From Flavobacteriales bacterium (GTDB lineage Bacteria > Bacteroidota > Bacteroidia > Flavobacteriales_F > PHOS-HE28), in the NCBI GenBank assembly GCA_019638085.1, contig JAHBUL010000014.1:4472-68471 (forward strand): a DNA stretch of 64,000 nt, read 5' to 3'. The notes beneath the pieces were generated by a model that saw nothing but the letters and a program-made list of their open reading frames with translations, did no database searches and was not told the origin of the DNA. The translations under genes and the position numbers were made by a program. This document shows, one piece after another, positions 3,752 through 25,449 of the stretch. Every line of letters begins with the position of its first letter. Position 1 is the stretch's first letter.

Positions 3752-3870
3752 CGTTGGTCAAGTACCCGAACGCCTTAGCACCTTCACCTGTGATCGCTGG
3801 CCAAAAAACGGTAATGTCACAGGCTGTGTCCGAGTTGCCGATGGCAAGTCCGGGTACCTTTGCGGCCCTC

Positions 3871-6550: not shown

Positions 6551-7525
6551 CTATAGCGGCATCACCTCGAACTTCGGGGAGCCGCGCAACCCTTGTTCAT
6601 CGTAGTAGTCGACGAAGTGCAGCTTGAAGAATTGACCGTCGAGATCCTGTACGATATACACTTGGTTGCTGTACACCTCGTACGTGCCGGTATCAAAGGA
6701 ATAGTCCTTCCAGTCGTAGCCGATGATGTCCTCGTCAGTGCTGAACGGATGAGCGATGGTATCGTTGAGCGACACGCTGGTAAAATCCCCATTCACTTGG
6801 GTCACCCGTGCACCGCTATAACCGTTCACCGTGCCGGTCACCAAATAGGCCAAATAGGGGTCAGGTGCATAGAACTGCTCGGTGTACTGGGTGAACACCA
6901 TGTCATAGCTACCAAACGGCGGAGCTATGGTAACCGTGCTCCCACTGTTGATGCTGAAGTGTGCATAAGGGCGGGCAGGGTCCTTCTGCAGGGTATGGTG
7001 CTGTACATCGGAGCCATCCATGCGGGCAATGCTGAACGCGTATGAGGTGGCATTCACACCGGTCAATTGCAGCTTGCGCAAACCCACCGGCAAACCATTA
7101 GTACCATAGCCGAGATCAAGGATGAATACGGGGAGCTCGCTGCGCCAGTCCTTGAGGGCCACACTGTCGGATCGTCCGTTAGGCAGGTCGATCTTCCATG
7201 TATTTCCGAATCCCGTGGTATCGCTTGGCTGGCTGATATCGGGCTCCATGGCACGATGGGAGCGCATCAAGCGGGCGTAGTTCAACCTCACCTGCCAGCC
7301 ATCCGGGGCGCTCTCGAAGGCGAGATCCCAATCCATCTTGCTGTTCTGTGCCACCACGCTGTAACTGCTGAGGTCGAACCAGAGTTGTTGGTCATAGGCA
7401 GGTCCAACCCGGGCCACACATTCCACGGCATAGCGAGGCTGCTTCGGCACGGGGATCTCGTCCTTCACGCATCCGCTGAAAGCGAGTGCCAACAACACCA
7501 GTCCTATCGTTCCGGAACCTTTCAT
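6551..7525 (-). CDS. HmuY-like heme-binding surface lipoprotein (lipobox LALAFSGC)
   Basis: Lipoprotein signal peptide. It shares the WDLAFE and C-terminal ...DW.xY......YxV....FK..F blocks with the 13740-14981 paralog, a HmuY-family signature. It overlaps the upstream TonB receptor gene by 4 nt. Confidence 0.6.
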   Translation of the reverse strand: MKGSGTIGLVLLALAFSGCVKDEIPVPKQPRYAVECVARVGPAYDQQLWFDLSSYSVVAQNSKMDWDLAFESAPDGWQVRLNYARLMRSHRAMEPDISQPSDTTGFGNTWKIDLPNGRSDSVALKDWRSELPVFILDLGYGTNGLPVGLRKLQLTGVNATSYAFSIARMDGSDVQHHTLQKDPARPYAHFSINSGSTVTIAPPFGSYDMVFTQYTEQFYAPDPYLAYLVTGTVNGYSGARVTQVNGDFTSVSLNDTIAHPFSTDEDIIGYDWKDYSFDTGTYEVYSNQVYIVQDLDGQFFKLHFVDYYDEQGLRGSPKFEVMPL

Positions 7526-9804
7526 AACCGTGTTTCCTTGCTCTTCCCGATGAGGTCCAACGCCAAGCGCACGAAGAGCGTACGGCCGGTGGCGAGCGGT
7601 ACACTTCCGGAACCCGCACCACTATGGGCCCCGCCGTTGCCCAGCGAAGCATTCAGATCGGTGATATTGCCGATGTTCTTGCAACCGATCTGTGCTATTA
7701 GTCGCCTATTGCAGAGTTGCTTGGACACTGACGCATCGGCCATCAGGTAGGATGCGATGCGACCGCGGCCGAGACTGCCATCATCCGTGTAGATATAGCT
7801 CTGCTGCTCGCCTTGGTATTTGGTGAAGAGGTTGATGCTCCACCCCTGCTTTCGCCAATGGCGAGTGGCCTGCAGGTTTACCGCAGGTGAATATTCGTAG
7901 GGGTTGCTACCGATCCGAACACCCACGGTATCGTAGCGCCCCGTGATGGATGTGCCCGCACCGATGGACCAGTGACCGGACTCCCATCCAAGACTGAAGC
8001 TGCCACCGAGCGTGCGGTACTCTCCCACGTTGATGTAGCCATAAAGTGTGCTGCCTTCCTCGGCCAAGGTGATCAGGTTGTGCACCCGGTCATGGAAGCC
8101 GGCGATCTCACCACGCAGCACCCCTTTCTCCAACGCCTTGCGGTAACTGAGCGAGAGGGAGTAGTTATTGGAGGATTCCGCGATCAGATCGGGATTGCCG
8201 TGGATATCATGGTTCACGTCCACGAAATAGAGGTAGAGTTCCTTGAGGGAAGGTGCACGGAAGCCCTCGGCATAGGATCCGCGCAGAGTGAGTGCGGTGT
8301 CCAACTGGAACCGCACATCCACGGAAGGCACCAGTGGTGCATCGTACTGGGTATTGTACGCATAGCGGAATCCCGGCCGGATGATCATGCGGTCCACGGG
8401 TTTCCACTGGGCGCTGACGAACGCGGCATAATCGCCGATCTCCTGATCGGTGCCATCCGCGATACGTTCCCCGGCCCCGGTCTCCAAGTTGAGGTCCATG
8501 CCTACTTCATATCCAAGCCGGGCACTGTCCTTCATGTTTGAGAACGTGCCCCTGATGTTGGTAAGCGTGAAGCGCGAATCATCAGCCTCTCCGGGCACAG
8601 GCCGGGTTTCCATGTTGGTGAGGTCGCGGATCCACATGCTGCGCGTGCGCTGGTAGCGATCGTGCGCCACCAACCCATGGATGCGCTTTCCGTTGCCCAG
8701 GTCGCCGGTCGTGAAGAGCGCATTATCCAACCGTTGGGTGAGGTATTCCGAATCGAATGCGCTTTCATCATAGGGTGCCCGGGGCAAGCCGCGATCGATG
8801 ATGAGGTCCTGCATGAACTCACCCTTGTAATTCAGCGTCCAATTATCATTCAAGGAGTAGCGATAGTTCAACCTTCCGAAATACTGCTCCCTTGGCTTCC
8901 AAGGCTGGTAGCGCGTGGAATCGGCCTCATGCTTCGCAAAATCGTACGTGCTGCTCTGCTCGGGGCTCCATCCCCCGAAATAGTTCCTACCCAACGTGAT
9001 CAACAGGTCGCTTTTTCCGAAGCGCTTGCCGGCAGCCACGGAAAGATTGAGCCTTCCAACCTGCTCCACATAAGAGATAGCCTTCAGCGACGAGGTGTTG
9101 CCACTGTTCTTGCGGGTGATCAGGTTGATGGTACCCGCCAAGGCATTGGTACCGTAGCTCACGCTGAGCGGACCTTCCAATATCTCCACACGATCGATAC
9201 CACTCAGGTCGATCTGGGTAAGGTCGAGATTTCCATCTTGCCGTCCTATGATGGGCACGCCGTCCACGAGGATCTTCACGTTCTCTCCACCCAAGCCACG
9301 CATGCTCAGCGATGTACCCAGCACATTGTCCTGCGAAAGCCGCATGTTCAATTCCTGGCCCAGCACATCTCCGAGGTTCTGTGCCGCCATCCGCTGTATC
9401 TGTTCCGCATTGATCACGTGCATACGTTGCACGGCCCGGTCGGTACTGGTGGGCTTGTACTGGCCCGTTACCACCAGTTCATCCAGGTTGAAGAATTGTG
9501 CCCTTTGCAAAGAGTAGGTACATGGAGATAGGTTGTAGACGGTATCGATCACCGGATCATAGCCGATGAAATCGATCCGGATGGCCAAGCCCCCTTGCAC
9601 ATCAGCGGCTTGCGCCGGAATGGTGATGGTCCCGTCGGGGCCTGAGACCACAACGCCTTTCGCCGTGGTCTTCAGAACATCCCATTGCACATGTGCGTAA
9701 GGCACGGCCTCCTTGGTGTCCGCCTCCCGTACCGTTAGCGGAACTTGCGCACATACGGCAGCCGAGCTGCTCAGGGCGAGGAGGGCTGCTAGGGTGCGGA
9801 TCAT
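7522..9804 (-). CDS. TonB-dependent outer-membrane receptor, HmuR-like heme receptor by context
   Basis: Signal peptide, a CarbopepD_reg-like N-domain, a TonB plug (DELVVTGQYKPTS ... RVEILEGPLSVSYGTNALAGTINLITRK) and a long beta-barrel ending in a C-terminal aromatic. The gene sits inside the heme operon. Confidence 0.85.
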   Translation of the reverse strand: MIRTLAALLALSSSAAVCAQVPLTVREADTKEAVPYAHVQWDVLKTTAKGVVVSGPDGTITIPAQAADVQGGLAIRIDFIGYDPVIDTVYNLSPCTYSLQRAQFFNLDELVVTGQYKPTSTDRAVQRMHVINAEQIQRMAAQNLGDVLGQELNMRLSQDNVLGTSLSMRGLGGENVKILVDGVPIIGRQDGNLDLTQIDLSGIDRVEILEGPLSVSYGTNALAGTINLITRKNSGNTSSLKAISYVEQVGRLNLSVAAGKRFGKSDLLITLGRNYFGGWSPEQSSTYDFAKHEADSTRYQPWKPREQYFGRLNYRYSLNDNWTLNYKGEFMQDLIIDRGLPRAPYDESAFDSEYLTQRLDNALFTTGDLGNGKRIHGLVAHDRYQRTRSMWIRDLTNMETRPVPGEADDSRFTLTNIRGTFSNMKDSARLGYEVGMDLNLETGAGERIADGTDQEIGDYAAFVSAQWKPVDRMIIRPGFRYAYNTQYDAPLVPSVDVRFQLDTALTLRGSYAEGFRAPSLKELYLYFVDVNHDIHGNPDLIAESSNNYSLSLSYRKALEKGVLRGEIAGFHDRVHNLITLAEEGSTLYGYINVGEYRTLGGSFSLGWESGHWSIGAGTSITGRYDTVGVRIGSNPYEYSPAVNLQATRHWRKQGWSINLFTKYQGEQQSYIYTDDGSLGRGRIASYLMADASVSKQLCNRRLIAQIGCKNIGNITDLNASLGNGGAHSGAGSGSVPLATGRTLFVRLALDLIGKSKETRL

Positions 9805-9830: not shown

Positions 9831-10898
9831 TCAGGCGATGCGTAGCTCGTTCTCCACTTCTTTCACCAGGCCCGCCCACTCAGGAAGTTCGGGGATGCCG
9901 GGCTTGCGCTTTCCGAAGAACTGCACCACCAACACACCGTTCTTGTCGAAGCATTCGATGGCGGTTACCATGCCATCCACGCTCGGCTTGCGCACCACCC
10001 AGCTCTCGGTGATCGCTCCTTCGCGCACGTGCATGTTGAAATCGGGATCTATCACATTGAACCATTCGGGCACATCCACCAGATTCGTTACGGTACCGGT
10101 ATGGATCTGGATCATTCCCTTGTTGCCAATGAAGACCATGATGGGAAACTGCTGCTTGGCTGCACGCGTCACGATCTCCCGCATGGCGTTGTTGCTCAGC
10201 TTGGTGCTGAATCCTTCGGGCGCCAATCGCAGGGCTTGTGTGCGGCTAACGTGGTATTTGCGCGTCATGCCATAGAAGTCGTGCGTATCCTTCATTGCTT
10301 TCCACTCGGCACGGAAGCCTTCGGCATCGATCTCGGCATCGGGCTTCTCCGTCGGCTCCTCAGGCCAGGGCTTCACTGCTTGCACTTTGCTCTGGTCATC
10401 ATTGCGGTACTGCTCGATCAAGCCTTCAAAAGCGGTCACATTGCTTTCCGGCAACAGGTAGACCTTGTGTACGGCCTCCCCATCCTTGGCGAAGAACTGC
10501 AAGCTGCGGCGCGGGCCATTCTTGCCATCTTCCACCACGGCGAAGGCCGAGTTCCAAGGCCCCCAGAAGATGCGCAGATCGATATCCTCGCCCACGAACA
10601 GTCCCACGTGCTGCTCGGTGAGGGACGGGTTCAGGTATTCCCCGTTGCGCTCATGCACGGCATCATTGTTTCGTGAAAGGGCCATTACGCGCCCCAGCTT
10701 AGGGATCTCCGCCATCAGCCCACGAAAGTCCGGAAGTAGCCGCGTAACTCCGTCACCGATTCGTAATACCAGCAATTCCACTTCGCTTACCCCCAATTCG
10801 GTGGCAGCATTGCGGATGCGTGTCTTCGGCTTGGCGGCCATGAGTTCATCAAAACGTTGTTGCAGATCGGCGTTGGTCACGGTCGTGGTTTCCATCAT
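9831..10898 (-). CDS. hemS: HemS/ChuS/HmuS-family hemin-degrading or heme-chaperone protein
   Basis: About 355 aa with the two-repeat architecture typical of ChuS/HemS/ShuS. It lies immediately downstream of the ABC importer genes. Confidence 0.7.
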   Translation of the reverse strand: MMETTTVTNADLQQRFDELMAAKPKTRIRNAATELGVSEVELLVLRIGDGVTRLLPDFRGLMAEIPKLGRVMALSRNNDAVHERNGEYLNPSLTEQHVGLFVGEDIDLRIFWGPWNSAFAVVEDGKNGPRRSLQFFAKDGEAVHKVYLLPESNVTAFEGLIEQYRNDDQSKVQAVKPWPEEPTEKPDAEIDAEGFRAEWKAMKDTHDFYGMTRKYHVSRTQALRLAPEGFSTKLSNNAMREIVTRAAKQQFPIMVFIGNKGMIQIHTGTVTNLVDVPEWFNVIDPDFNMHVREGAITESWVVRKPSVDGMVTAIECFDKNGVLVVQFFGKRKPGIPELPEWAGLVKEVENELRIA

Positions 10899-10938
10899 TT
10901 TTGTCGGGTTGATGCCGGGTCGGGAAGATCTTCCGTTC

Positions 10939-11832
10939 CTAGCGGTCGTGTGTGTTTTGATGCGCGAGATCCCGCGCGTTTACAGGAGAAAAATCCCGGG
11001 TCCCCGGGTAAGTGTCCACGGTGCTTTCCAGCTCGCCCTTGCGGAATGATCCATCGAAAAACACCAGCGGGCATGAATGGCAAGGATGCGGCATCACTTG
11101 GGCGTTCAATCCATAGGCCTCGGTAAGGATGGGCGCGGTGAGCACCTCGTCCGGTGCGCCGGAAGCAGTAATGCGAGAGGCCTTCATCAGGATGATGCGA
11201 TCAGCATACTGAGCCGCCATGTTCACATCGTGCAGCACGGCCAGCACGCAATGGCCTTCCTTGGCGAAGGACCGGGCGGCGTGCATCAGCGCGTGTTGGT
11301 GGCGGATATCGAGGTCGTTCAGCGGCTCATCCAGCAGGAGAATGCGTGTGCCGGGTGCCGCATTGTCCACCTGGGTGAAGGCGCGTGCGATATGTGTGCG
11401 CTGCTGTTCGCCTCCCGAAGTGGTGTCGAGCACTCGGGCGCGCAAGGGATCCAGCAATGCGGTTTGCACGGCGCGGTCCACTGCTTCCAGATCACTGGCG
11501 GCCGGGGTATTACCATAGTATGGGTAACGCCCCATGCGCACCACCTCTTCCACGGTGAAGGCAAGGCCCATGGCATTGTGTTGGCCGAGCACGGATCGGC
11601 TCTTTGCCAGTTCCTGCGGATCCCTGTCCTGCATAGCAGCACCGTTCCATTGGATACTTCCTTGCTGAAGTGGAAGGTCTCCAGCGAGCAGCCGCAGAAG
11701 TGTGCTTTTGCCTGCCCCGTTCGGGCCCAGCAGCACAACCAGTTCACCGGGTTCCACAGCGAAGGTCACATCGTGCAACAAGCACTTGCGATCGCGCTGG
11801 GCGTGCCATGTAAGTTGATGGACCTTCAACAT
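10939..11832 (-). CDS. hmuV: Hemin ABC transporter ATP-binding protein (HmuV/FecE family) with a ~40-aa C-terminal extension
   Basis: Walker A GPNGAGKST, an ABC signature and Walker B ILLLDEP. The C-terminal extension contains HPCHSCP, a Cys-Pro motif. Confidence 0.85.
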   Translation of the reverse strand: MLKVHQLTWHAQRDRKCLLHDVTFAVEPGELVVLLGPNGAGKSTLLRLLAGDLPLQQGSIQWNGAAMQDRDPQELAKSRSVLGQHNAMGLAFTVEEVVRMGRYPYYGNTPAASDLEAVDRAVQTALLDPLRARVLDTTSGGEQQRTHIARAFTQVDNAAPGTRILLLDEPLNDLDIRHQHALMHAARSFAKEGHCVLAVLHDVNMAAQYADRIILMKASRITASGAPDEVLTAPILTEAYGLNAQVMPHPCHSCPLVFFDGSFRKGELESTVDTYPGTRDFSPVNARDLAHQNTHDR

Positions 11833-11833
11833 T

Positions 11834-12880
11834 TCAGGCGAATTGCAGGTTGCGTTTGCCGCGGATCAGGAGATAGAGGAAAACAGGCGCACCACACAAG
11901 GCCGTGATCACGCCAATAGGTACTTCGGCAGGTGCGGCCACGGTGCGTGCAATGGTATCGGCCAATACGAGCAGCACGGCACCTCCCAGTGCGGAGGCGG
12001 GCAGTAGGAAGCGATTATCAGCCCCTCCGGCCAAGCGCAGCATGTGCGGCACCACCAATCCCACAAAGCCGATCACGCCACACAACGCCACCGTGGCCCC
12101 CACCATCAGGGCGGTGCAAAGCACCACGCGGCGCTTCATCGCCTCGGCATTCACCCCGATGTGGCGGGCTTGGTCCTCGCCAAGCGCCAGCGCGTTCAAC
12201 GGCTTGTGCATCCGGAGCAGGATGATCAATGGGATGGGCACGGCGATCAGCAGCACCCATACGGCATTGAGGTCTGCGCCGCCCAAGCTGCCGAGCATCC
12301 AGAACACGATGCTGCGCAATTGGGCATCGTTGGCGGTGAAGGTGAGCAGGCCGGTGAGTGCTCCGGTGAGCGCGGCAATGGCCACCCCGGCCAGCAGCAT
12401 GGCGGCCACGTTGGTACGGCGTCCTTCGCGCGCAATGCCGAAAACAAGAAAGGTGGTGCCCACGGCACCGGCAAAGGCCGCCAATGGTAGGGCCAGGGTA
12501 CTGGCCCATCCTCCGAAGACCACGTTGGCCCAATGCGTCATCACGATGGCCACTGCCGCCATCAACGCGGCACCGGAGGAGATACCGATGATGGAAGGGT
12601 CCGCCAGCGGGTTGCGGAAGAGTGCCTGCATGGCGGTACCACCTGCTGCCAGTGCGGCACCTGCCAGCAGTGCCACCATGATGCGGGGCATGCGAACGAC
12701 CATCAGCACGGCCTGTTGCATATCGGTGTGTTCGCCCCAGGAAAAACCCAGGCCAGCGGCAATGGACGAGAGGAAGGCACCGGGTGCGATGTGGACCGCA
12801 CCTGCTTGTACAGCCACCAGTACCGCAAGGATCAGCAAGGTCCAGAGGACCGCGATGATGATGCGCTGCTTGACGCTCAT
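11834..12880 (-). CDS. hmuU: Hemin/siderophore ABC permease (FecCD family)
   Basis: About 348 aa, polytopic and Gly/Ala-rich FecCD-type. It overlaps hmuT by 4 nt. Confidence 0.85.
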   Translation of the reverse strand: MSVKQRIIIAVLWTLLILAVLVAVQAGAVHIAPGAFLSSIAAGLGFSWGEHTDMQQAVLMVVRMPRIMVALLAGAALAAGGTAMQALFRNPLADPSIIGISSGAALMAAVAIVMTHWANVVFGGWASTLALPLAAFAGAVGTTFLVFGIAREGRRTNVAAMLLAGVAIAALTGALTGLLTFTANDAQLRSIVFWMLGSLGGADLNAVWVLLIAVPIPLIILLRMHKPLNALALGEDQARHIGVNAEAMKRRVVLCTALMVGATVALCGVIGFVGLVVPHMLRLAGGADNRFLLPASALGGAVLLVLADTIARTVAAPAEVPIGVITALCGAPVFLYLLIRGKRNLQFA

Positions 12881-13734
12881 GGCATGGTTGCCGCGCGGAG
12901 GTCTTTGTTCAATTCGGTCACGGCTTCGCCCACTCGCGGGCCGAATCCGGCCATTACCACGGGTTGCAGTGTTATGAATGCTTGATCGCGGCCTGCGCTG
13001 GTGCTGGCCATTCCCGGCACACGCATCAGCGCCTCATTTCCTTGCAGGTGTTCCTGACCGGTATTGAAGAGCAGCACCACATCCGGATCAGCAGCCACTA
13101 AGGCTTCGGGGGTCAGGGGTTTGAAGTCCGAGAAGCCGGAGATGGCATTGGTACCCCCGGCCAGCCCGATCAATGCTTGGATCGGCGTTCCCTCACCCGC
13201 CACCAGCAAGGTGCCCGCACCGCGAGCGTAAATGAAGAGGACCTTGGGAGCCGGCTGCAATGGCACTACAGCCGCAAGGCCCTCTTCGATGGCATCCACG
13301 ATCTTACGGGACTCCACAGTACGATGCAGCGAATCAGCGATCCGGATGATCAATTCCTTTGTGCCGGCAATGTTGTTTCGGGGCGCGAAGAGCATCAATC
13401 GGATGCCAGCTTGGCGGATCTGGCCCTCCACGGCAGGGTCCAACTGCCCCTCGTTCGCCAGCACCAGGTCCGGCGAAAGCGATAGGATGCCTTCCGCCCG
13501 GATGGACCGGTCGTGCCCCAGCTTCGGCAAGGCATTCACGGCCTCCGGATACTTGCTCGTCACGTCCGTCCCGACGATACGATCTTCCAGCCCGATGGCG
13601 GCGACGATCTCAGTAAGCGTACCGTTCAGAGTAATGATCCGCTGCGGCTCTACCTGTACTGTGGCTGTTTCTACAGTAGGAGCCGTGCAACCGGTCGCCA
13701 AGGCGAGCAGAAATAACCCAAGAAGCGCGCGCAT
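12877..13734 (-). CDS. hmuT: Periplasmic heme-binding lipoprotein of the ABC importer (HmuT/ChuT-like, class III substrate-binding protein)
   Basis: Lipobox LALATGC. The size (~285 aa) and context fit a HmuT/TroA-fold binding protein. Confidence 0.75.
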   Translation of the reverse strand: MRALLGLFLLALATGCTAPTVETATVQVEPQRIITLNGTLTEIVAAIGLEDRIVGTDVTSKYPEAVNALPKLGHDRSIRAEGILSLSPDLVLANEGQLDPAVEGQIRQAGIRLMLFAPRNNIAGTKELIIRIADSLHRTVESRKIVDAIEEGLAAVVPLQPAPKVLFIYARGAGTLLVAGEGTPIQALIGLAGGTNAISGFSDFKPLTPEALVAADPDVVLLFNTGQEHLQGNEALMRVPGMASTSAGRDQAFITLQPVVMAGFGPRVGEAVTELNKDLRAATMP

Positions 13735-13739: not shown

Positions 13740-14981
13740 TTAGTCGATCACCAGCTTAGCGGTGGTATTTAAGTGGTTGGCCTCAATGCGGATCACATAC
13801 ACTCCCTTGGAGAGAGCGCTTACGTCGAGGCTGCGGTTGCTGAGGCCGGTAAGTCCGCTCCAGTGCTGTTCCAGCATTTGCTGGCCCGTGGTATTGAACA
13901 CGCGGACGGTGCCTTCGGAAGCGGGAATGTCCACGATCACTTGAGCTTGTCCATTGCTGACCGGGTTCGGATATACCAGCAGGGTGCCTTGTTGCACAAC
14001 ATTTTCCCCGATCCCCACAGTGCTAACCATCTCTTGGGTGAAGGTCATGTTTCCGTTCCCGCTGCCACCGTAGCCGGTGAAGATCACCTTCCAGATGTTG
14101 CCGGGTATGTCCTTCACGAAGTAGGTGCGATCAGCGGCGATGGTATAGACACCTTGGCCCATATCATAGGTTTTCCAGTCGGAGCCGATGATGTTCATAT
14201 GCGTACTGAACGTACCGGGGAACCATTCGGCATCAGCCGTAGGTACTCCATCTACTTGCAGCGCGGTCACGTTCTTGTTCTGGAGCACCCCGCTCACCGG
14301 ATAGGCCGTGGGAACAAAGCCGGTGTACTTGGTAAAGAGCAGGTCCCAATTCACGGTGAGCGGCTCACGGTCCAGCGTGGAATTGGAAGCGAAGGAGTAA
14401 TAACCGAAGTTCTTACCGGTGAATCCGGACTTGGTCAGTGTAGCATCATGGCTGTCCGTACCGTCCAAATTGGCATAGGTGAAGTCATACACGCCATTGG
14501 CCAAGGAGTTGATGCGGAGCTTCCTCCACGTGCTGTCCGGGGACATGATCGCATAGATGCGCGTTCCTGCGATCACGTGTGTAGCTTGGTTGTAGTTGCC
14601 CCAGCCCACGTTGAATCCTTGTGGATCATCCAAATTATTGCCATGGTTCAATGCACTTACGGTCCATGCAGTGTCGGCATTTTCCACACGTGTCCAGTTG
14701 TCCACGTCCACCGTCACCAAGTTATCCCACTGGGCAATGGCCGTGGGAGTTTCATATACCACCAAGCCCTTGGCCGTGTTCACGCGAATGGAGGATGAAA
14801 AACCCACCATTTCAAAGGCCAAGTCCCATTCTGCCAAGGGCGCACTGTCCACTTCTCCGTTCAGGAGGCTGTACCACACCTGCTCACTATTGGCCGCAGC
14901 GGTGGAAACGGTTACCGATGTTTGGGCCTGCATGGGCGCTATCAGGAGCACAGTGAAGAGCGTGAGGAGTATTTTTTTCAT
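13740..14981 (-). CDS. HmuY-like domain protein fused to a T9SS C-terminal sorting domain (candidate secreted or surface hemophore)
   Basis: Signal peptide MKKILLTLFTVLLIAPMQAQ with the ATG at 14981. The N-terminal ~300 aa align block-wise with the 6551-7525 lipoprotein (EWDLAFE; IGSDWKTYDMGQGVYTIAADRTYFVKDIPGNIWKVIF). The C-terminus (LLVYPNPVSNGQAQV...GVYVIRIEANHLNTTAKLVID) is a Por_Secre_tail/T9SS type-A C-terminal domain. It is the first gene of the operon. Confidence 0.65.
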   Translation of the reverse strand: MKKILLTLFTVLLIAPMQAQTSVTVSTAAANSEQVWYSLLNGEVDSAPLAEWDLAFEMVGFSSSIRVNTAKGLVVYETPTAIAQWDNLVTVDVDNWTRVENADTAWTVSALNHGNNLDDPQGFNVGWGNYNQATHVIAGTRIYAIMSPDSTWRKLRINSLANGVYDFTYANLDGTDSHDATLTKSGFTGKNFGYYSFASNSTLDREPLTVNWDLLFTKYTGFVPTAYPVSGVLQNKNVTALQVDGVPTADAEWFPGTFSTHMNIIGSDWKTYDMGQGVYTIAADRTYFVKDIPGNIWKVIFTGYGGSGNGNMTFTQEMVSTVGIGENVVQQGTLLVYPNPVSNGQAQVIVDIPASEGTVRVFNTTGQQMLEQHWSGLTGLSNRSLDVSALSKGVYVIRIEANHLNTTAKLVID

Positions 14982-15155
14982 GATGCCGCAAAGGACCGGA
15001 CCAAGTGGTGGTTCCACCATACCCTGATCGTGGTATTCAGCCTCCCACTTTGTCATGGAAGTGTCCAGTGAAACGCTCCTCCGGACCCCCAAGAGCTGTG
15101 AACGTCGGCAAACGCGCAGATGCATTCCTTAACATTGTGCTTCCGCCCATCGAAC

Positions 15156-16520
15156 ATGCGCCGCCGTACCCTTGGAACCCTTGTCCTACTGGGCTTTATG
15201 AGCCTGGCGGGCGTGGTGTTCACACAAGTGATGTGGCTGAAGCGTGCCCAACAGTACGAGCATGAGCAGGTGGCCTTGCAACAGCAACAACAGCAGCAGT
15301 TGGACAAGCAGTTCAACGACCGGGTCACCATAGCGCTCACCGAGGTCACGGAGCGGATCCTTTCCATCACCAAGGACCCCAGCGACCTCTTCGATGCCGT
15401 GAAGCAGGAACGGCCCAACTATTTCGCTGTCACCATCAATGACACCATCCACCCCTACTTACTGGAAGCCTTGCTGGAGCAGGAGTTCAAGCGGCGCAAC
15501 ATCAACGACGATTTCGAGTACGGGATCTACGATTGCTTCACCGACAGCATCGTGTACGGCAACTACGTAAGCCTGAGCGACAGCGTGCGCACCGATAGTG
15601 CACGGCACAGCCAGCTGCTCAAGTTGGACAAGGACGGGCACTACTTCGGGGTCTATTTCCCACGCCGGACCAGCTCCCTTTGGACGCCAGGTCGTGAAGG
15701 GACCATCAATTGGATCTATCCGGCCGTGGTCTCCTTCATCATGTTCGCCTTCTTTGCGTACAGCATGTGGGTGATCCTCCGCCAGAAGCGCTTGGGCGAG
15801 ATGAAAAACGACTTCATCGGCAATATGACCCACGAACTGAAGACGCCGATCAGCACCATAGCGCTCAGCAGTGAAGTGCTCTCCGATCCGGAGATCATCA
15901 AGGAACCCGAACGCCTACGGAACTACGCACGGATCATCCACACCGAGAACGAACGGCTGCGGCAACAAGTGGAACGTGTTCTTCAGCTAGCCACCTTGGA
16001 TAATGGCGGTAGCGATCTGCACATGGAAGCATTGGACATCCATGAACTTCTGGAGGATACGCGGAATTCCTTCACAGTACTGCTCCAGGAACGTTTCGGC
16101 ACTTCCTCCATGAACCTGCAGGCCACCGATCACTTCGTAAAAGGCGATCGCATCCATGTGGGCAACATCCTGTTCAACCTAGTGGACAATGCCGTGAAGT
16201 ATTCCAAGGATAAACCCGTAGTGGAGATCAGTACCCGCAATGAGCATGGCAACCTGCTGATCACCGTATCGGACAAGGGCATCGGCATGCGCAAGGAGGA
16301 CCTCCGCAACATCTTCGAACGATTCTTCCGGATCCATACGGGGAATGTCCATGATGTGAAGGGATTCGGACTTGGCCTGCATTATGTAGCGGAAATGGTG
16401 CGCGCCCATGGTGGCAAGGTTCATGTGGAAAGCACCTATGGACAGGGAAGCACCTTTACACTTGTATTCCCGGCGATACGAAAACCGGAAAATCAAAAGC
16501 CAGATGAAGAACGAGACTGA
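15156..16520 (+). CDS. Sensor histidine kinase (HisKA + HATPase), divergent from the heme operon
   Basis: H-box HELKTPISTI plus N/G1/G2 boxes (NLVDNAVKYS, DKGIGM, GFGLGL). It has an N-terminal TM segment and a poly-Q linker (QQQQQQQ). The first in-frame start is at 15120 and the second at 15156. Confidence 0.8.
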   Translation: MRRRTLGTLVLLGFMSLAGVVFTQVMWLKRAQQYEHEQVALQQQQQQQLDKQFNDRVTIALTEVTERILSITKDPSDLFDAVKQERPNYFAVTINDTIHPYLLEALLEQEFKRRNINDDFEYGIYDCFTDSIVYGNYVSLSDSVRTDSARHSQLLKLDKDGHYFGVYFPRRTSSLWTPGREGTINWIYPAVVSFIMFAFFAYSMWVILRQKRLGEMKNDFIGNMTHELKTPISTIALSSEVLSDPEIIKEPERLRNYARIIHTENERLRQQVERVLQLATLDNGGSDLHMEALDIHELLEDTRNSFTVLLQERFGTSSMNLQATDHFVKGDRIHVGNILFNLVDNAVKYSKDKPVVEISTRNEHGNLLITVSDKGIGMRKEDLRNIFERFFRIHTGNVHDVKGFGLGLHYVAEMVRAHGGKVHVESTYGQGSTFTLVFPAIRKPENQKPDEERD

Positions 16521-17217
16521 ACCGGGGGCCAAAGGAACCCTGCTGCTGGTGGAAGATGACGAGAACCTGGGCTTCGTTGTGCAGGACTCGTTGAGACGAC
16601 GCGGCTATGCCGTGCATTTATTCCGTGATGGCAAGGAGGGCCTACAGCATTTCAACCGGAATAAGTATGACCTCTGCCTGTTGGATGTCATGCTTCCCCA
16701 TAAGGATGGCCTGAGCCTGGCAGAGGATATCCGCCTTACCGACAACCGCACGCCCATCATCTTCCTAACGGCCAAAAGCCAGACCGAGGACCGCATCGCC
16801 GGTTTCAAGGCCGGTGGCGACGACTATATCACCAAGCCTTTCAGCCAAGAGGAGCTTGTGTTGCGCATAGAAGCCATCCTGCGGCGCACACAGAACAAAG
16901 GGCAGGATCAACGTGATCGCGATGTGTTCCACCTCGGCGATTTCGTCTTCGACGATAAGAACAAGACACTCACCCACCCGGAAGAAACGCGACGCCTCAC
17001 CAAGAAGGAAGCAGCGGTGCTCCGGCTGTTGAGCATGCATCAGGACCAAGTGCTTCCCCGAGAGCTGTTACTGAACATGGTCTGGGGTGATGACAGTTAT
17101 TTTCTTGGGCGCAGCCTCGATGTGTTCATCAGCCGCCTTCGGAAATACCTGCGCTACGACGAGAAGGTGCGCATTGTGAATGTACACGGCGTGGGTTTCA
17201 AGATGCAGGTGGATTAG
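16504..17217 (+). CDS. OmpR-family response regulator (REC + winged-helix)
   Basis: LLLVEDDENL...D52-like LLDVMLP...KPF. The C-terminus has an OmpR winged helix. The ATG at 16504 overlaps the HK stop by 17 nt. Confidence 0.85.
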   Translation: MKNETEPGAKGTLLLVEDDENLGFVVQDSLRRRGYAVHLFRDGKEGLQHFNRNKYDLCLLDVMLPHKDGLSLAEDIRLTDNRTPIIFLTAKSQTEDRIAGFKAGGDDYITKPFSQEELVLRIEAILRRTQNKGQDQRDRDVFHLGDFVFDDKNKTLTHPEETRRLTKKEAAVLRLLSMHQDQVLPRELLLNMVWGDDSYFLGRSLDVFISRLRKYLRYDEKVRIVNVHGVGFKMQVD

Positions 17218-17954: not shown

Positions 17955-19550
17955 TCAGTCGACGTTATCGTGCAGGAACGGATTGTTCCGGCGCAGTTCC
18001 ACTTGGCGCTCACCCATTTCGTTGCTGCCTTCGCTGAGGGTGTATCGGCTCACGTTGCTATCGGTACTATGTGGTGTTTCACTCAGCAGCACATTGCGAC
18101 GCTTGTAGGCTGGCTCCCGTTCCATTTCAGCCAATCCGTTGGGGGTCCGCAGGCGCATGTTCACCTCACGCATATGGGCCAAACGATCCTCTGCGCGGGC
18201 CTGATGTTCTGCTGGTGAGAGATGGGCATGGGTCGGCTCATGGCCAGCGCTCCCATGAGCTACCGGTGGTTGGTGTTCATTGTCATGACCTTGCGGATGA
18301 CCTTCATTCAGGTCATGTACCACCTTCTGCTCTTCCTCGGGTTCCGGGCTGGGTTCCACGCGGGAACGTTCCATCTGGACCGGCTCCTCGAACTGAAGCC
18401 GGGACTGCTCTTTCACCGGTGCTTCCACCTGCTTGATATAGGGTTCCACACTAGGGGCTTCAGGTGCTTTTGCCGAAGGCACCGACATCTGCACCGGATT
18501 GGTGATCGGCGAGGTGATCATGGTCGGCAATTCGCTGTTCAGATCGGTCACCTTTTTCTCGGGCACGCGCTGCTCCAAGGTGGAGGTGAGCTCGTTCTGG
18601 CTGAAGCCCGTGGCGATGACGGTAACGCGGATCTTCTCTCCCAAAGCCTCATCGGTGCAATAGCCCCAGATCACATCGGCGGTGCTGCCAGCGGCATCCT
18701 GTATGTGGTCGGTGATCTCGGTCATCTCGTCCATGGAGATGGTCTTGGTACCGAGCCCTACATTGAGCAACACATACTTGGCACCTTTGATATCGTTGTC
18801 GTTGAGCAAAGGTGAAGCAAGTGCATCCTCAGCGGCACGAATGGCACGATCCTCTCCCTCGGCCTCGGCCATGCCCAGGATGGCCACGCCGCTGCCGGTC
18901 ATAACAGTGCGCACGTCCTCGAAATCCACGTTCACGGTTCCGGTCTTGGTGATGATCTCGGCAATGCCACGTGCAGCAGTGGTAAGCACGTTGTCGGCAT
19001 GGGCGAAGGCCTCGCTGATGTCGAGGTTACCGTAAAGGTCGCGCAGGCGATCGTTGTTGATCACCAGCAAGGTATCCACAGCTTGGCGCATCTCTTCAAT
19101 GCCTTCGGCGGCCTGGTTCTTCCGCTTGCGACCCTCCCATTGGAAAGGCATGGTGACAATACCCACGGTGAGGATGCCCATGTCCCGAGCGATACGCGCG
19201 ATCACGGGTGCGGCACCGGTTCCGGTGCCACCGCCCATGCCAGCGGTAACAAAGAGCATCTTGGTGCGGCTGCTGAGGAGTTCACGGATCTCCTCGATGC
19301 TTTCCTGCGCGGCAGCGTTACCACGTTCTGGGATGCTGCCTGCACCCAAGCCTTCGGTAAGGGCTGCACCAAGCTGAAGCTTCACCGGGATCGGGCTCAT
19401 ATCGAGTGCTTGCTTGTCGGTATTGCAAATGATGAAATCAACACCCACGATGCCTTGGGTGTGCATATGGTTCACGGCATTGCTACCGCCTCCACCCACA
19501 CCGATCACTTTGATGATGGAGGAGAGTTCGGTGGGAAGGTCGAATTTCAT
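17955..19550 (-). CDS. ftsZ: Cell division protein FtsZ with a long C-terminal linker
   Basis: GVGGGGSNAV, the T7 loop and the NTDKQAL motif. A ~200-aa C-terminal low-complexity linker ends in NNPFLHDNVD. Confidence 0.95.
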   Translation of the reverse strand: MKFDLPTELSSIIKVIGVGGGGSNAVNHMHTQGIVGVDFIICNTDKQALDMSPIPVKLQLGAALTEGLGAGSIPERGNAAAQESIEEIRELLSSRTKMLFVTAGMGGGTGTGAAPVIARIARDMGILTVGIVTMPFQWEGRKRKNQAAEGIEEMRQAVDTLLVINNDRLRDLYGNLDISEAFAHADNVLTTAARGIAEIITKTGTVNVDFEDVRTVMTGSGVAILGMAEAEGEDRAIRAAEDALASPLLNDNDIKGAKYVLLNVGLGTKTISMDEMTEITDHIQDAAGSTADVIWGYCTDEALGEKIRVTVIATGFSQNELTSTLEQRVPEKKVTDLNSELPTMITSPITNPVQMSVPSAKAPEAPSVEPYIKQVEAPVKEQSRLQFEEPVQMERSRVEPSPEPEEEQKVVHDLNEGHPQGHDNEHQPPVAHGSAGHEPTHAHLSPAEHQARAEDRLAHMREVNMRLRTPNGLAEMEREPAYKRRNVLLSETPHSTDSNVSRYTLSEGSNEMGERQVELRRNNPFLHDNVD

Positions 19551-19601
19551 GGGATCAGGGTTTTCAGGGGTTCAGGGTTCAATGGGTCAAAGGGTCGCGG
19601 G

Positions 19602-20894
19602 TCAGGCTTCGTCGTCGCGGAAAATGTCGGATGCACCTTTCAGCACTTGGTCGAAAAAGTTCCCGACCTTGAACTTGTGGCTGTGGCTCTTCACCTTAGG
19701 TGGGGCTTCCTCATGTTTGGTCTTGCGCCGTTCGATGTACTCGAATCCACGCAGTACGAGTCCCACACCGGTGGCGAACAGGGGGCTGGTCACATCATCC
19801 ACCTTGCTGGTGGCGAGGTGCTCGTTGGGATATCCGATGCGCGTGCTCATGCCTGTGACATACTCGGTGAGCTGACGCAGGTGCTTCAATTGCGCACCAC
19901 CGCCGGTGAGGACGATGCCGCCACTGAGCTGCTTCTCCAAGCCACTGTTCTTGATCTCGAAGTAGACATGGTCGAGGATCTCCTCCATCCGGCTCTGGAT
20001 GATGTTGGCCAAGTTCTTCAGGCTGATCTCCTTGGGATCACGACCACGGAGCCCAGGGATGCAGACCACCTCGTTCTCCTTGTTCTCCGAGGCAAGTGCG
20101 CTACCAAAGCGGCTCTTCAACAGCTCGGCCTGATCGCGAAGGATGGCGCAACCCATCTTGATGTCGTCGGTGATCACATTGCCGCCGAAGGGGATCACGG
20201 CCGTATGGCGAATGATGTGATCACTGAAGATGGCAATGTCGGTGGTTCCTCCACCGATATCCACCAGCACCACGCCCGCCTCCTTCTCTTCGGCGCTGAG
20301 CACGGCATCCGCGCTGGCGAGGGGTTCGAGGATCAACTCGGTAACATCGAGGTTGGCGCGTGCCACGCACTTGTTGATGTTGCGCGCGGCGGTGACCTGC
20401 CCCGTGATGATGTGGAAGTTGGCTTCCAGTCGCACGCCGCTCATGCCGATGGGATCCTTTATTCCCTGCTCGCTATCCACGATGTATTCCTGTGGCAGCA
20501 CGTGGATGATCTCCTCGCCCGGCACCATGGCCAGCTTGTACATATCGTCGATCAGCTGATCGATGTCGAGCTGTCGGATCTCCTCCTCGAGGCTTTGGCG
20601 GGTGATCATGCCTCGGTGATGCATGCTCCGGATATGCTGCCCGGCGATGCCCACGTTCACGGTAGTGATCTCCACTCCAGCACTGTTCTCCGCTTCCTCA
20701 ACGGCGGCTCGAATGCTCTCCACGGTGCGCTGGATATTGGTGACCACGCCACGGTTCACACCGTCGCTGCGGCTCTTCCCCATACCCATGATCTCGAGCT
20801 TTCCTTGCTCATTCCGTCGGCCTACGATGCAGGCGATCTTGGTGGTGCCTATGTCCAGGCCTGCGACTATTTCCTCGTTGTGCTCCATGTTCAT
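19602..20894 (-). CDS. ftsA: Cell division protein FtsA
   Basis: Actin-fold motifs (VAGLDIGTTKIACIVG; DIGGGTTDIAIF). Start is at ATG 20894 (MNMEHNEEIV), 40 nt after the ftsQ stop. Confidence 0.9.
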   Translation of the reverse strand: MNMEHNEEIVAGLDIGTTKIACIVGRRNEQGKLEIMGMGKSRSDGVNRGVVTNIQRTVESIRAAVEEAENSAGVEITTVNVGIAGQHIRSMHHRGMITRQSLEEEIRQLDIDQLIDDMYKLAMVPGEEIIHVLPQEYIVDSEQGIKDPIGMSGVRLEANFHIITGQVTAARNINKCVARANLDVTELILEPLASADAVLSAEEKEAGVVLVDIGGGTTDIAIFSDHIIRHTAVIPFGGNVITDDIKMGCAILRDQAELLKSRFGSALASENKENEVVCIPGLRGRDPKEISLKNLANIIQSRMEEILDHVYFEIKNSGLEKQLSGGIVLTGGGAQLKHLRQLTEYVTGMSTRIGYPNEHLATSKVDDVTSPLFATGVGLVLRGFEYIERRKTKHEEAPPKVKSHSHKFKVGNFFDQVLKGASDIFRDDEA

Positions 20895-20934
20895 TTTCTC
20901 GTTCGGGGGGGGCGGTGGTGCCGGGGTTTCCGGC

Positions 20935-21741
20935 TCAGTAATGGGTTCGTTTGGTGCAGACCACTTGATCGTCAAAGCGCAGGTCGATGGTGCTGTAGCG
21001 GCGCCAGTCGGTCTGCGGTATGCCTTCGGCGAAGAACATGCGCAGCTTGGTCAAGCGCTGCTGAAAATGGGTGCCGTCGCCGATGCGCACTCGCATCATG
21101 CCCACGGTGGGTATCAGCGTGATATCGCCATTGGCATCCACAACCGCTTGGCAGAACAAGGCGTTCCAGAGCGGGTCGGCGATGATGGTTTGTGCGAGGG
21201 CGTGGATGGCACGGCTGTGCGTATGAAGGGCCAGGCTGTCATTGCCGAAGGCCACGTTCACAGGGGCGCGTTCGGCGAAGGGTTCAGCGAGTTGTCCGGT
21301 GACCACCATCACGCGTGCCGTGTAATTCCGGTTCAGCGGCATGGTCCAGCCTTCCTTGTCGATGTAGAAGCCTGAGCCGTCGGCGTTCACTACGCGGACG
21401 ATCGGCTCGCGTTGGCGGACCTTCACTTTCAGGATGCCATCCATGGTGTGGTACACATCGGCCTCCGCCACACATGGGATGGCTCGCAGGCGCTGCTCGA
21501 TGCCGGTCTCATCCACCTTGTTGATGGGTGTACCGATCACGGGGCCGGCTCCTTTGATCACTTCCTGTTTGAGCGCTTCGGAGTCGATGAAGTGCATGCC
21601 GCTGGACATGTCCATTTCCACCTCAATATCCCTTACGGGGAGGCTGCCTCCACTGCGCTCCACGAAGCCCAGCGCGGCGAGCACGGCACATCCGGCAACG
21701 ACCTTCGCCGCGATCCGTAGGATATGCTTCGTTCTGTTCAT
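20935..21741 (-). CDS. ftsQ: Cell division protein FtsQ (TM + POTRA)
   Basis: Single N-terminal TM followed by a POTRA-like domain. Its position between murC and ftsA and the 4-nt overlap with murC support the call. Confidence 0.75.
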   Translation of the reverse strand: MNRTKHILRIAAKVVAGCAVLAALGFVERSGGSLPVRDIEVEMDMSSGMHFIDSEALKQEVIKGAGPVIGTPINKVDETGIEQRLRAIPCVAEADVYHTMDGILKVKVRQREPIVRVVNADGSGFYIDKEGWTMPLNRNYTARVMVVTGQLAEPFAERAPVNVAFGNDSLALHTHSRAIHALAQTIIADPLWNALFCQAVVDANGDITLIPTVGMMRVRIGDGTHFQQRLTKLRMFFAEGIPQTDWRRYSTIDLRFDDQVVCTKRTHY

Positions 21742-23117
21742 TCTTGTCGATTCACCATTGCCGCGATGGCCGGGACCAGCCTATCGATGTCACCTGCGCC
21801 AAGGGTCAGCAAGATGTCCACATTCCGCCCCTCCAACAGCGGTATCAATCGCTCCTTTGTACACACCTCGGTGTTAGTGAGCTGTACCTGTTCACCCAGC
21901 CATTGCGAGGTAATACCGGGCAGCGGTTCCTCCCGGGCGGGGTATATCTCGAGGAGAATAAGCTCGTCCACTTTGGCCAGGCTACGCGCAAAATCGGCTG
22001 CCAGGTCCCGCGTGCGGCTGTAGAGGTGTGGCTGAAATACCGCAGTGATGGTACGGCCGGGATAGAGCTCACGCACGCTGCCGATGCAGGCATCCAACTC
22101 GGTGGGGTGGTGTGCGTAATCATCAATGAGGACGCTCTTTTCCGTTCGTGCCCGCACCTCAAAACGCCTGCGTACTCCGAGGAATGTGGCCAACCCTTTC
22201 CGCAGGGCGTGCGGTTCCACGCCTGCATGCAAGGCCATGGAGGCGGCGGCCACGGCGTTCTCCACATTGTGCCTTCCCGGCATACCCAAAGTGAGGTCGC
22301 GCAGCACTTGCCCACCCGCCACCAGGTCGAAATGGTACGCACCATCGCGTACGACAACATGCTCCGCGTGTGGCCCATCCACTGCATCGAGCCCATAGGG
22401 GATCGCATCGCGGAGCACCGTGGCATGCTCCTTCAGGCGTTCCAGAACACGTTCGTGAACCAACATCCGACCTTTTACCAACGCGGCAAACTCCGCATAG
22501 GCCTGGTACATCGCCTCGGCCGTACCATAGATGTCCAAGTGGTCCGGGTCCATGGCGGTGATGATCGCCTCATCCGGGTGAAGGGCGAGAAAGCTTCGAT
22601 CATACTCATCAGCTTCCACCACGTTCAGCACGGCCTTGGAGTTCAGTAGAACGTTGGTATCGTAGTTGGCACTGATACCGCCAAGGAATGCGTTGCATGG
22701 AATTCCTCCGGAAGTGAGCAAGTGGGCGAGCATGGTGCTCACCGTGGTCTTTCCGTGCGTACCGGCCACGGCCATGGTCCGTCGGTCACGGGTCACCAAG
22801 CCCAGTACCTCGCTGCGCTTTTTGATGACCGCTCCTCGTTCCTTCCAGAAAGCGATCAACGGATTGGTCATCGGCACGGCAGGTGTTCGCACCACCATTA
22901 TACGCGTAGCATCCGCCTCGCGGAATTCCTGGGGAATATTCCGTGGGTCCGTACTATAGCTCACATCGATCCCCTCATGCGCCAGTTGCGCAGCGATCTC
23001 ATTCGGGGTCTTATCGTACCCGGCCACTGTGGCACCTTGGCGCCGGAAATACCGCGCGAGGCCGCTCATGCCGATGCCGCCGATGCCAATGAAGTAGAGC
23101 AATTCCGGGCGTTCCAT
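21738..23117 (-). CDS. murC: UDP-N-acetylmuramate--L-alanine ligase
   Basis: IGIGGIGMSGLA, the Mur ligase P-loop GTHGKTT and the central and C-terminal Mur ligase domains. Confidence 0.9.
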   Translation of the reverse strand: MERPELLYFIGIGGIGMSGLARYFRRQGATVAGYDKTPNEIAAQLAHEGIDVSYSTDPRNIPQEFREADATRIMVVRTPAVPMTNPLIAFWKERGAVIKKRSEVLGLVTRDRRTMAVAGTHGKTTVSTMLAHLLTSGGIPCNAFLGGISANYDTNVLLNSKAVLNVVEADEYDRSFLALHPDEAIITAMDPDHLDIYGTAEAMYQAYAEFAALVKGRMLVHERVLERLKEHATVLRDAIPYGLDAVDGPHAEHVVVRDGAYHFDLVAGGQVLRDLTLGMPGRHNVENAVAAASMALHAGVEPHALRKGLATFLGVRRRFEVRARTEKSVLIDDYAHHPTELDACIGSVRELYPGRTITAVFQPHLYSRTRDLAADFARSLAKVDELILLEIYPAREEPLPGITSQWLGEQVQLTNTEVCTKERLIPLLEGRNVDILLTLGAGDIDRLVPAIAAMVNRQE

Positions 23118-23118
23118 T

Positions 23119-24255
23119 TCAAGCTGCCGTTTTGATCGTTGTTGCTGAAGGCAAGGCCAAGCGGATCACTTCCGCCGCGATGGCCTCTGCCGCGTTGCTC
23201 ATCCCGAGGTCTTCCATGGCCAAGCGCAATCGGTCGCGCTCGCCGGGATCGGCGACCAAGCGCAGGATCTCTGATCCGAGTTTCTCATTGGCTTCGGCAT
23301 CCTTCACCAGGATCGCTGCTCCCCGATCGGAAAGTGCGCGCGCATTGCCCGTCTGGTGATCTTCTGCTGCGGTGGGAAGTGGTACCAGGATGCTGGGCAA
23401 GCGGGTGAGGCAGAGTTCGCTCACGCTGATGGCACCTGCCCGGGCCACCACCACATCGGCCACTGCATAGGCCAGATCCATGCGGGTGATGAACTCGTGG
23501 ACATGTGCATCGGCAAAGCCGGCATTGCTCACAGCCTCCACGGCTTGCGCGTGAAAGGGTGTACCGGTCTGCCAGATCAGTTGCACACCTTGGTCCCGCA
23601 GTTGGGGCAAGGCGGCAGCGATGCCGTGGTTGATGCCGCGCGCACCCAAACTTCCGCCGGTCACCAACACTACCGGAGCACCTTCCCGGAGTTGGAAATG
23701 CTCCATGCCCCGTGGACGTTTTCCGGTCAGGCGGACCATGTCCTGCCGGACCGGGTTGCCGGTAAGGCGGATCTTTTCCGCTGGGAAATAGCGGTCCATA
23801 CCCGGGTATGCGACACAGATGATATTGGCCCGCTTCGCCAGCATGCGGTTGGTGGCACCGGCATGGCTGTTCTGTTCCTGTATGAGCGTGGGTACCTTGG
23901 CGCGTTGGGCCGCGGCCAGCACAGGTCCGCTGGCGTAGCCGCCCACGCCCACGGCCACATGCGGCTGAAAGGTGCGTACAATGCGGCGCGCCTTCCACAT
24001 GCTCTGGATCACGCGCCAAGGCAAGCCTACGTTCTTCCACAATGCCTTGCGCTGGAAGCCGCGGATGGGGAGTCCCGTGATCTCGTATCCGGCGGCAGGC
24101 ACCTTCTCCATCTCCATCTTCCCTTCGGCACCCACGAAGAGGAAGCGCGTATCGGGCGCCTTGTCCTTCACGGCGTTCGCAATGGCGATGGCCGGGAAGA
24201 TGTGCCCTCCCGTACCTCCTCCGCTGATCAACACCTTAAGCGGCTGCTGCGGCAT
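23119..24255 (-). CDS. murG: UDP-GlcNAc:lipid I N-acetylglucosaminyltransferase MurG
   Basis: KVLISGGGTGGHIFPA. The ORF-track start at 24315 is a GTG, so the ATG at 24255 (MPQQPLKVLISGGG) was chosen. It overlaps the ftsW stop by 20 nt. Confidence 0.9.
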   Translation of the reverse strand: MPQQPLKVLISGGGTGGHIFPAIAIANAVKDKAPDTRFLFVGAEGKMEMEKVPAAGYEITGLPIRGFQRKALWKNVGLPWRVIQSMWKARRIVRTFQPHVAVGVGGYASGPVLAAAQRAKVPTLIQEQNSHAGATNRMLAKRANIICVAYPGMDRYFPAEKIRLTGNPVRQDMVRLTGKRPRGMEHFQLREGAPVVLVTGGSLGARGINHGIAAALPQLRDQGVQLIWQTGTPFHAQAVEAVSNAGFADAHVHEFITRMDLAYAVADVVVARAGAISVSELCLTRLPSILVPLPTAAEDHQTGNARALSDRGAAILVKDAEANEKLGSEILRLVADPGERDRLRLAMEDLGMSNAAEAIAAEVIRLALPSATTIKTAA

Positions 24256-25438: not shown

Positions 25439-25449
25439 CTATTTGATGA

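Follow-up and report, generated by a model that had tools for sequence, protein, structure and literature searches.

A probable secreted hemophore-like protein with two HmuY modules and a type IX sorting tail at the head of a heme-uptake operon in an uncultured Flavobacteriales relative

What might a HmuY-family protein do when it carries a type IX secretion system (T9SS) sorting tail in place of a lipid anchor? The HmuY hemophores studied so far come mostly from host-associated anaerobes, together with one fish pathogen, and all of them are single-module lipoproteins. The question is raised by a gene on the minus strand of a 64,000-nucleotide stretch of contig JAHBUL010000014.1 (positions 4,472 to 68,471; assembly GCA_019638085.1), hereafter the window, which belongs to an uncultured Flavobacteriales relative with a G+C content of about 57% and a best genome match that is 70% identical. 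The gene occupies positions 13740-14981, from an ATG at 14981 to a stop codon at 13740-13742, and encodes a protein of 413 amino acids in which a HmuY-like region precedes a T9SS C-terminal domain (CTD). The answer favored here is that the product is a secreted hemophore-like protein, with a double HmuY region and a T9SS tail, which heads a heme-uptake operon; taken as a whole, this functional reading is considered probable.

The order of parts in the protein, namely signal peptide, HmuY module, HmuY module, linker, and T9SS type A CTD, is close to certain. Translation from the ATG at 14981 gives the N-terminus MKKILLTLFTVLLIAPMQAQTSV. Residues 1-19 (MKKILLTLFTVLLIAPMQA; 14925..14981, minus strand) have the marks of a Sec signal peptide on inspection: the N-terminus is positive, the core hydrophobic, and the A|Q site conserved, and a signal peptidase I cut is predicted before Gln20. 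By the same inspection, with the N-termini of relatives alongside, this leader, which continues as QTSV, is of the signal-peptidase-I type; A19 and Q20 are nearly invariant across the family. The leader has no lipobox cysteine, and for this reason the protein is not a lipoprotein. The first HmuY-like module (R1; residues 20-176; 14454..14924, minus strand) contains the motifs VWYSL, EWDLAFE, and GWGNYNQATH, the last ending in the invariant His135 (codon 14577-14579). The second (R2; residues 177-322; 14016..14453, minus strand) contains GYYSF, NWDLLFTKY, DWKTYDM, and YFVKDIPGNIWKVIFTGY. A flexible linker between cargo and sorting domain follows (residues 323-335; 13977..14015, minus strand), with pLDDT below 50 at residues 323-329, and the protein ends in the type A sorting domain (residues 336-413; 13743..13976, minus strand), recognized by YPNP, GVYVIRI, and KLVID.

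The T9SS tail is matched by both collections searched, with 50.3 bits for Por_Secre_tail PF18962 over residues 336-412 of 413 (Pfam, cutoff 27) and 46.6 bits for TIGR04183 (NCBIfam, cutoff 23). HmuY PF14064 passes marginally, with 29.7 bits over residues 33-314 (Pfam, cutoff 27). The first-pass annotation of this DNA had proposed just such a fusion at 13740-14981, and its reading of the C-terminus is borne out, since the peptide that it quoted (LLVYPNPVSNGQAQV ... VYVIRIEANHL ... KLVID) is present in the translation. In searches of the PDB that used sequence only, the HmuY structure 3h8t was matched with E-values of only 0.022 and 0.28, so that the relationship to HmuY is not established by sequence alone; 8glk_D and 8glj_D were further matches in a profile search of the PDB sequences. 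An AlphaFold2 model of the full-length protein, built from 32 homologues, has a mean pLDDT of 88.6, with disorder only in the leader and at residues 323-329. Structure prediction upholds both domain assignments: the predicted fold of the cargo is the all-beta fold of HmuY, and that of the tail is the Ig-like beta-sandwich of a CTD.

The minus-strand reading frame that ends at 13740 has three possible starts, the ATG codons at 14981, 15056, and 15125. The two upstream starts would yield proteins of 438 amino acids (ATG 15056) and 461 amino acids (ATG 15125), and both were rejected as unlikely because relatives have non-triplet indels in this stretch and because the signal peptide would be buried. 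Gene callers often choose the upstream ATG that corresponds to 15056, as in the database proteins P0001 (438 amino acids), P0002, P0004, and P0005, which gives products of 438-443 amino acids. The motif CCATGACAAAG, which is conserved and non-coding, contains this ATG, so that the database starts are probably wrong and hide the signal peptide.

With its roughly 300 residues, the HmuY region is longer than the known HmuY proteins, which have about 190, and it falls into two halves that resemble each other. In a profile-profile comparison (hhalign, residues 20-159 against 160-322), the halves align with an E-value of 1.5e-5 and a probability of 79%. Three pairs of motifs correspond between them: VWYSL with GYYSF, EWDLAFE with NWDLLFTKY, and GWGNY...RIYAI...WRKLRINSL with DWKTY...TYFVKD...IWKVIFTGY. 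Each half also spans nearly the whole of a reference profile of six characterized HmuY proteins (HmuY, Bvu, Tfo, PinA, PinO, and HfpY), which was rebuilt from the alignment in the supplement of PMC9331221; the C-terminal half does so with an E-value of 1.9e-5 and the N-terminal half with one of 3e-3. Because the halves align and each covers the profile, the HmuY region consists of two complete tandem modules. The single HmuY-like domain of the first-pass annotation was placed in the right family, and the duplication within it was missed. No description of tandem HmuY domains was found by full-text search of a literature collection that is itself incomplete.

Further multiplication of the unit is seen elsewhere in the family. 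In one metagenome-assembled genome (MAG; locus L014), the HmuY-CTD gene is present twice, the copies lying side by side at 8508-9761 and 10034-11197. Some database proteins are about twice the usual length (P0122, 990 amino acids; P0128, 759; P0131, 880; P0149, 752; P0270, 735), and four of these five are matched by the double-HmuY query in two stretches, which suggests that they may contain four HmuY modules.

The architecture is widespread. A word-indexed search returned 729 homologues; among the best 120 of them, almost all carry both Pfam domains, and the NCBI name, where one is given, is "T9SS type A sorting domain-containing protein". Residues 20-322, used as the query of an exhaustive phmmer search, yielded 1,687 cluster representatives at E <= 1e-3, of which 544 at E <= 1e-30, mostly of 395-435 amino acids. 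The carriers belong to Flavobacteriales, Salibacteraceae, Saprospiraceae, Chitinophagaceae/Chitinophagales, and other Bacteroidia. They are known mostly as MAGs, with a cultured bacterium, Nemorincola caseinilytica, among them. In 116 diverse representatives, which are 31-48% identical, Por_Secre_tail is found in 113 and Pfam HmuY in 96, and the retention of the tail in nearly all of them indicates that it is under selection. These data bear on the suspicion that the joining of HmuY and CTD is an artefact, produced by a mis-called reading frame, a chimeric assembly, or the decay of a sorting tail that no longer functions. The Pfam HmuY score, barely above its threshold, might feed such a suspicion. 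Set against it are the occurrence of the same full-length architecture in hundreds of independent genomes and metagenomes, the tail kept by 113 of the 116 representatives, the confident folding of both domains in the predicted model, and an identical protein on an independent contig, so that an artefact is very improbable.

Seven tightly packed genes on the minus strand, separated by -4 to +40 nucleotides, begin with this one, and the earlier description of it as the promoter-proximal gene of a heme operon holds. Gene 2 (12877..13734) encodes a periplasmic substrate-binding protein (Peripla_BP_2, PF01497, 105 bits) and gene 3 (11834..12880) a FecCD/BtuC-type ABC permease (PF01032, 304.7 bits). 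Gene 4 (10939..11832) encodes the ATP-binding protein of a heme ABC transporter, which passes the cutoff of the equivalog NF010068 (280.6 bits, cutoff 261), and gene 5 (9831..10898) a HemS/ChuX-type cytoplasmic protein that binds or degrades heme (PF05171, 244.5 bits; PF06228, 185.5 bits). A TonB-dependent outer-membrane receptor with plug and beta-barrel (PF00593, PF07715) is encoded by gene 6 (7522..9804); heme and hemoglobin receptors are its best subfamily similarity, with TIGR01785 reaching 125 bits, under its cutoff.

The cargo of this operon might be another molecule than heme. A HmuY fold could hold protoporphyrin IX, a corrinoid, or another tetrapyrrole, or could belong to a non-binding accessory that aids the receptor or extracts the ligand from proteins of a host or the environment. 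HmuY homologues do vary in ligand, as in BfrA, BfrB, and BfrC; the present family does not keep the canonical His/His or Met/Met pair; and the permease scores 283 bits with BtuC and the receptor 116 bits with TonB-B12, both under cutoff. The other components of the operon point towards heme: the ATPase passes a heme equivalog cutoff, one gene codes for a heme-handling protein of the HemS/ChuX type, and the best subfamily matches of the receptor are of the heme and hemoglobin types. In addition, an invariant histidine lies in a loop equivalent to a known heme-ligand loop, as would be expected of a heme binder. A non-heme cargo or a non-binding role is accordingly regarded as improbable.

Gene 7 (6551..7525) encodes a second HmuY protein, with the lipobox AFSG|C and 57.4 bits for PF14064. 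It had been taken for a conventional lipoprotein; a lipoprotein it is, and the conventional single module is not what it has. BLASTP aligns it with the CTD protein across both modules, at 25% identity and an E-value of 2e-19, and the two families align with an E-value of 7e-39 (hhalign), the lipoprotein family having a deletion exactly at the GWGxYNxxTH hairpin. This full-length alignment to the double unit means that the paralogue is a double module as well. Its family has neither the hairpin of His135 nor an invariant histidine, and its Met87 is 94% conserved. The lipobox Cys19 of the paralogue is followed by V-K-D-E. In the family, the cysteine is present in 32 of 33 sequences and is followed by K/R, D/E, and E, with about 30 of the 33 showing C-x-K-(D/E)-E. 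This pattern matches the surface-export signal that Lauber et al. 2016 reportedly described for lipoproteins of Bacteroidota, which suggests that the paralogue is exposed on the cell surface.

Selection appears to act on this set of genes. In a sample of 38 genome loci, which come from Flavobacteriales, Saprospiraceae, Chitinophagaceae, and Bacteroidia MAGs, about 30 have both the CTD form and the lipoprotein form lying together with the receptor, and in nearly all related loci the receptor adjoins HmuY genes. Loci of the Flavobacteriales type show the order CTD-receptor-lipoprotein and several loci of Bacteroidia and Saprospiraceae the order receptor-lipoprotein-CTD, and the maintenance of the trio despite varied order argues for selection on it as a functional unit. 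Only the window and five of the 38 loci (L002, L003, L005, L008, and L034) have the four-gene ABC/HemS cassette (9831-13734) interposed between CTD gene and receptor; the close relatives L001 and L004 are without it at that position. Given this limited occurrence, the cassette is best seen as an optional insertion, with the look of a module that is mobile or optional.

Whether the CTD protein leaves the cell is a separate question. A PorU-type sortase could link the double HmuY to a surface glycolipid, as happens to CTD cargo in Porphyromonas gingivalis, which would make it a cell-surface heme receptor, a fixed capture antenna beside the TonB-dependent receptor. A passage of PMC10202324 allows type A CTD cargo to be either anchored or released, and both the architecture and the synteny with the receptor fit a surface-bound role equally well. 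Release is suggested by the counterpart in Flavobacterium columnare, which is described, in a passage of PMC9618737, as T9SS-secreted, extracellular, and heme-binding. Moreover, a surface lipoprotein paralogue with C-x-K-[DE]-E is already encoded in the operon, and a second anchored copy would be redundant. Anchoring of the CTD protein is thus considered rather unlikely.

The residue that would coordinate heme was sought in 154 homologues with 26-100% identity to the protein. His135 is present in all 154. It is the last residue of the motif GWGxY(N/S/D)xxTH, within the hairpin of module 1 whose counterpart in HmuY is the His166 loop. Heme in P. gingivalis HmuY is coordinated by His134 and His166, the latter within W161-LEFS-H166. 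The positions equivalent to the known ligand pairs, His134/His166 and the Met/Met of Tfo, are not conserved in these homologues. The first-pass annotation had drawn attention to a His/His or Met/Met pair; of the candidate ligands, only His135 is invariant. Further invariant residues are Tyr37, Tyr130, Lys190, Tyr194, and Lys270. A bis-His site made of His113 and His135 and a methionine site in module 2 were also considered and rejected, as His113 and Met274 are each kept in only half of the homologues. His135 is the most likely candidate for the iron ligand of the secreted form, as judged from its conservation and position.

A route from secretion to uptake can be proposed for the protein. Sec would export the precursor, and signal peptidase I would cut it before Gln20. 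The T9SS would then recognize the CTD and carry the protein over the outer membrane, where the tail would be removed, leaving a mature protein of about 33 kDa that would be released or held at the surface. Heme would be captured, most probably with His135 in the module 1 hairpin as an axial iron ligand, and would pass to the TonB-dependent receptor of the operon and its partner lipoprotein, the double HmuY paralogue. Import and processing could proceed through the periplasmic binding protein, the FecCD-type ABC transporter, and the HemS/ChuX protein, with the divergent two-component system at 15156-17217 as likely regulator. A more specific form of this route would be a hemophore relay of two tiers, in which the secreted protein scavenges at a distance and hands its heme to the receptor-docked lipoprotein paralogue. 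Such a relay has not been described previously, and it is put forward here as a tentative possibility, clearly more doubtful than the secreted hemophore-like protein itself. Heme coordination in the relay would be unlike the known His/His or Met/Met sites, and the doubled fold might provide two binding sites, or one module for binding and another for docking; these details are equally tentative.

Several observations weigh against the interpretation as a secreted hemophore-like protein. The PF14064 score is marginal (29.7 against 27), and its alignment, in which the profile starts near residue 33 and ends near residue 314, splices the N-terminal motif of module 1 onto the C-terminal motif of module 2. 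Some HmuY homologues, such as BfrB and BfrC of Bacteroides fragilis, reportedly do not bind heme. His113, near the equivalent of His134 in module 1, is a histidine in only 77 of the 154 homologues, and Met274, which has the same offset from a conserved tryptophan in module 2 as His166 in HmuY, is a methionine in only 77 and a phenylalanine in 48. Flavobacterium psychrophilum HfpY has an asparagine at the position of His135. The 64-kb window contains none of gldKLMN, sprA, porU, and porV. In F. columnare, deletion of hmuY had no phenotype in growth or virulence, in vitro or in fish (PMC9618737). The weakest steps of the functional reading are heme binding, release as against anchoring, and relay to the paralogue.

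The divergent intergenic region upstream of the operon (14982..15155) was compared in a MAFFT alignment of 12 loci. Across diverged relatives, the blocks CACAATGTTAAG, TTCACAGCTCTTGG, and ACACTTCCATGACAAAG are conserved, as is a block GGTCCTTTGCG about 6 nucleotides 5' of the ATG. A perfect palindrome, ATACCnnGATCnnGGTAT / ATACCCTGATCGTGGTAT, at 15019-15036 belongs to the conserved blocks as well. It is unique in the window; at least one match was obtained in 12 of 100 shuffles, and the palindrome is missing from loci L011 and L013. All these intergenic blocks are probably sites for a regulator and a promoter. An Rfam scan of the intergenic region gave no match. A scan for sigma-70 promoters and terminators found fewer sites than in shuffled sequence, and it is therefore uninformative for a Bacteroidota genome. 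On the other side of this region, a histidine kinase of 454 amino acids (15156-16520, plus strand; HisKA and HATPase_c) is followed by an OmpR-type response regulator of 237 amino acids (16504-17217, plus strand; Response_reg and Trans_reg_C). The divergent position of this pair is retained in most loci of the Flavobacteriales type (within L001-L023), and the two-component system is a likely candidate for regulator of the operon. In P. gingivalis, hemin acquisition genes are controlled by the two-component system HaeSR (PMC3764172).

Other genes of the window are related to gliding and the T9SS. A gliding-motility lipoprotein, GldB, is encoded at 36465-37502 on the minus strand (PF25594, 265 bits), and a SprB-repeat protein is annotated at 57363-58715 on the plus strand. 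After the latter, within 57363-63309 on the same strand, come two large proteins of 1002 and 536 amino acids, each with a Por_Secre_tail CTD as its sole Pfam match; by this domain they are predicted to be further T9SS cargo. Taken together, GldB, the SprB-repeat protein, and the two additional CTD proteins make a gliding/T9SS lifestyle of the organism likely. Elsewhere in the window, the heme locus adjoins a dcw cluster (17955-33432, minus strand) with ftsZ, murC, murG, ftsW, murD, mraY, murE, a PASTA-containing PBP gene, and mraW. A second outer-membrane receptor-like gene, with CarboxypepD_reg, Plug, and OMP_b-brl_3 domains, lies at 3754-6360 on the plus strand, in convergent orientation to the heme operon and facing its end. 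Two adjoining genes at 39719-42636 on the minus strand encode a 2-oxoacid:ferredoxin oxidoreductase (POR_N/POR and TPP_enzyme_C).

The locus indicates that free-living Bacteroidota of several orders commonly use the T9SS route together with a doubled HmuY, the secreted form having an anchored paralogue as its partner at one receptor. As a reading of this gene, the predicted delivery of a HmuY hemophore by the T9SS, as earlier proposed, is essentially right, and it is already published and common in databases. The novelty that had been implied for it does not stand: a HmuY of this kind has been reported from F. columnare, the domain pair is precomputed for hundreds of proteins, and HBP35 is known. 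As T9SS secretion of a HmuY protein has been published, nothing is overturned by the present results. The doubled HmuY fold, the single invariant histidine, and the conserved pair of a secreted and an anchored form are the features that were not found described. The family is large and includes the cultured N. caseinilytica, and it offers one clear residue, His135, and a relay model that can be tested outside animal hosts.

Among known systems, the nearest in domain content is the HmuY of F. columnare, C6N29_01035, in which HmuY_like (pfam14064) is combined with Por_Secre_tail (TIGR04183, pfam18962) (Conrad et al. 2022, PMC9618737). A passage of that paper calls it a "T9SS-secreted HmuY" and cites the secretome of Thunes et al. 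2022. It resembles the window protein, as compared by domain pair only, in being a predicted extracellular heme binder of a T9SS-bearing member of the Flavobacteriales (PMC9618737). The F. columnare protein is absent from the best 120 matches of the family-profile search. The same paper lists it apart from the iron ABC genes C6N29_01845-01855 and describes no operon like that of the window.

The characterized members of the family, namely P. gingivalis HmuY (PDB 3H8T), Tfo, PinO/PinA, Bvu, and BfrA-C, have one module each and a length of about 190-220 amino acids, and as lipoproteins they are all anchored by a lipobox cysteine. The window protein, in contrast, has two modules, no such cysteine and hence no lipid anchor, a T9SS tail, and a single invariant His135. 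The operons differ as well. The Hmu operons characterized in P. gingivalis and other Bacteroidetes comprise the hemophore, a TonB-dependent receptor, and four uncharacterized proteins, a putative CobN/Mg-chelatase being one of the four (PMC9331221), whereas the operon of the window has an ABC transporter and HemS.

A distant, flavobacterial member of the family is F. psychrophilum HfpY, for which 1:1 binding of heme, a Soret band at 398 nm, and support of growth on hemoglobin have been shown (PMC9331221). It is encoded together with its receptor HfpR, and its hairpin GWYNYNGATN is very similar to GWGNYNQATH of module 1. It differs in being a single-module lipoprotein of 214 amino acids without a C-terminal sorting domain and in having the asparagine already mentioned in place of His135. 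Outside the HmuY family, HBP35 of P. gingivalis is a hemin-binding protein exported by way of a T9SS C-terminal domain, according to a review. It shares with the window protein the status of heme-binding T9SS cargo, which is predicted for the latter, and differs from it in its thioredoxin activity and glycosylation, as given by titles of papers in that review.

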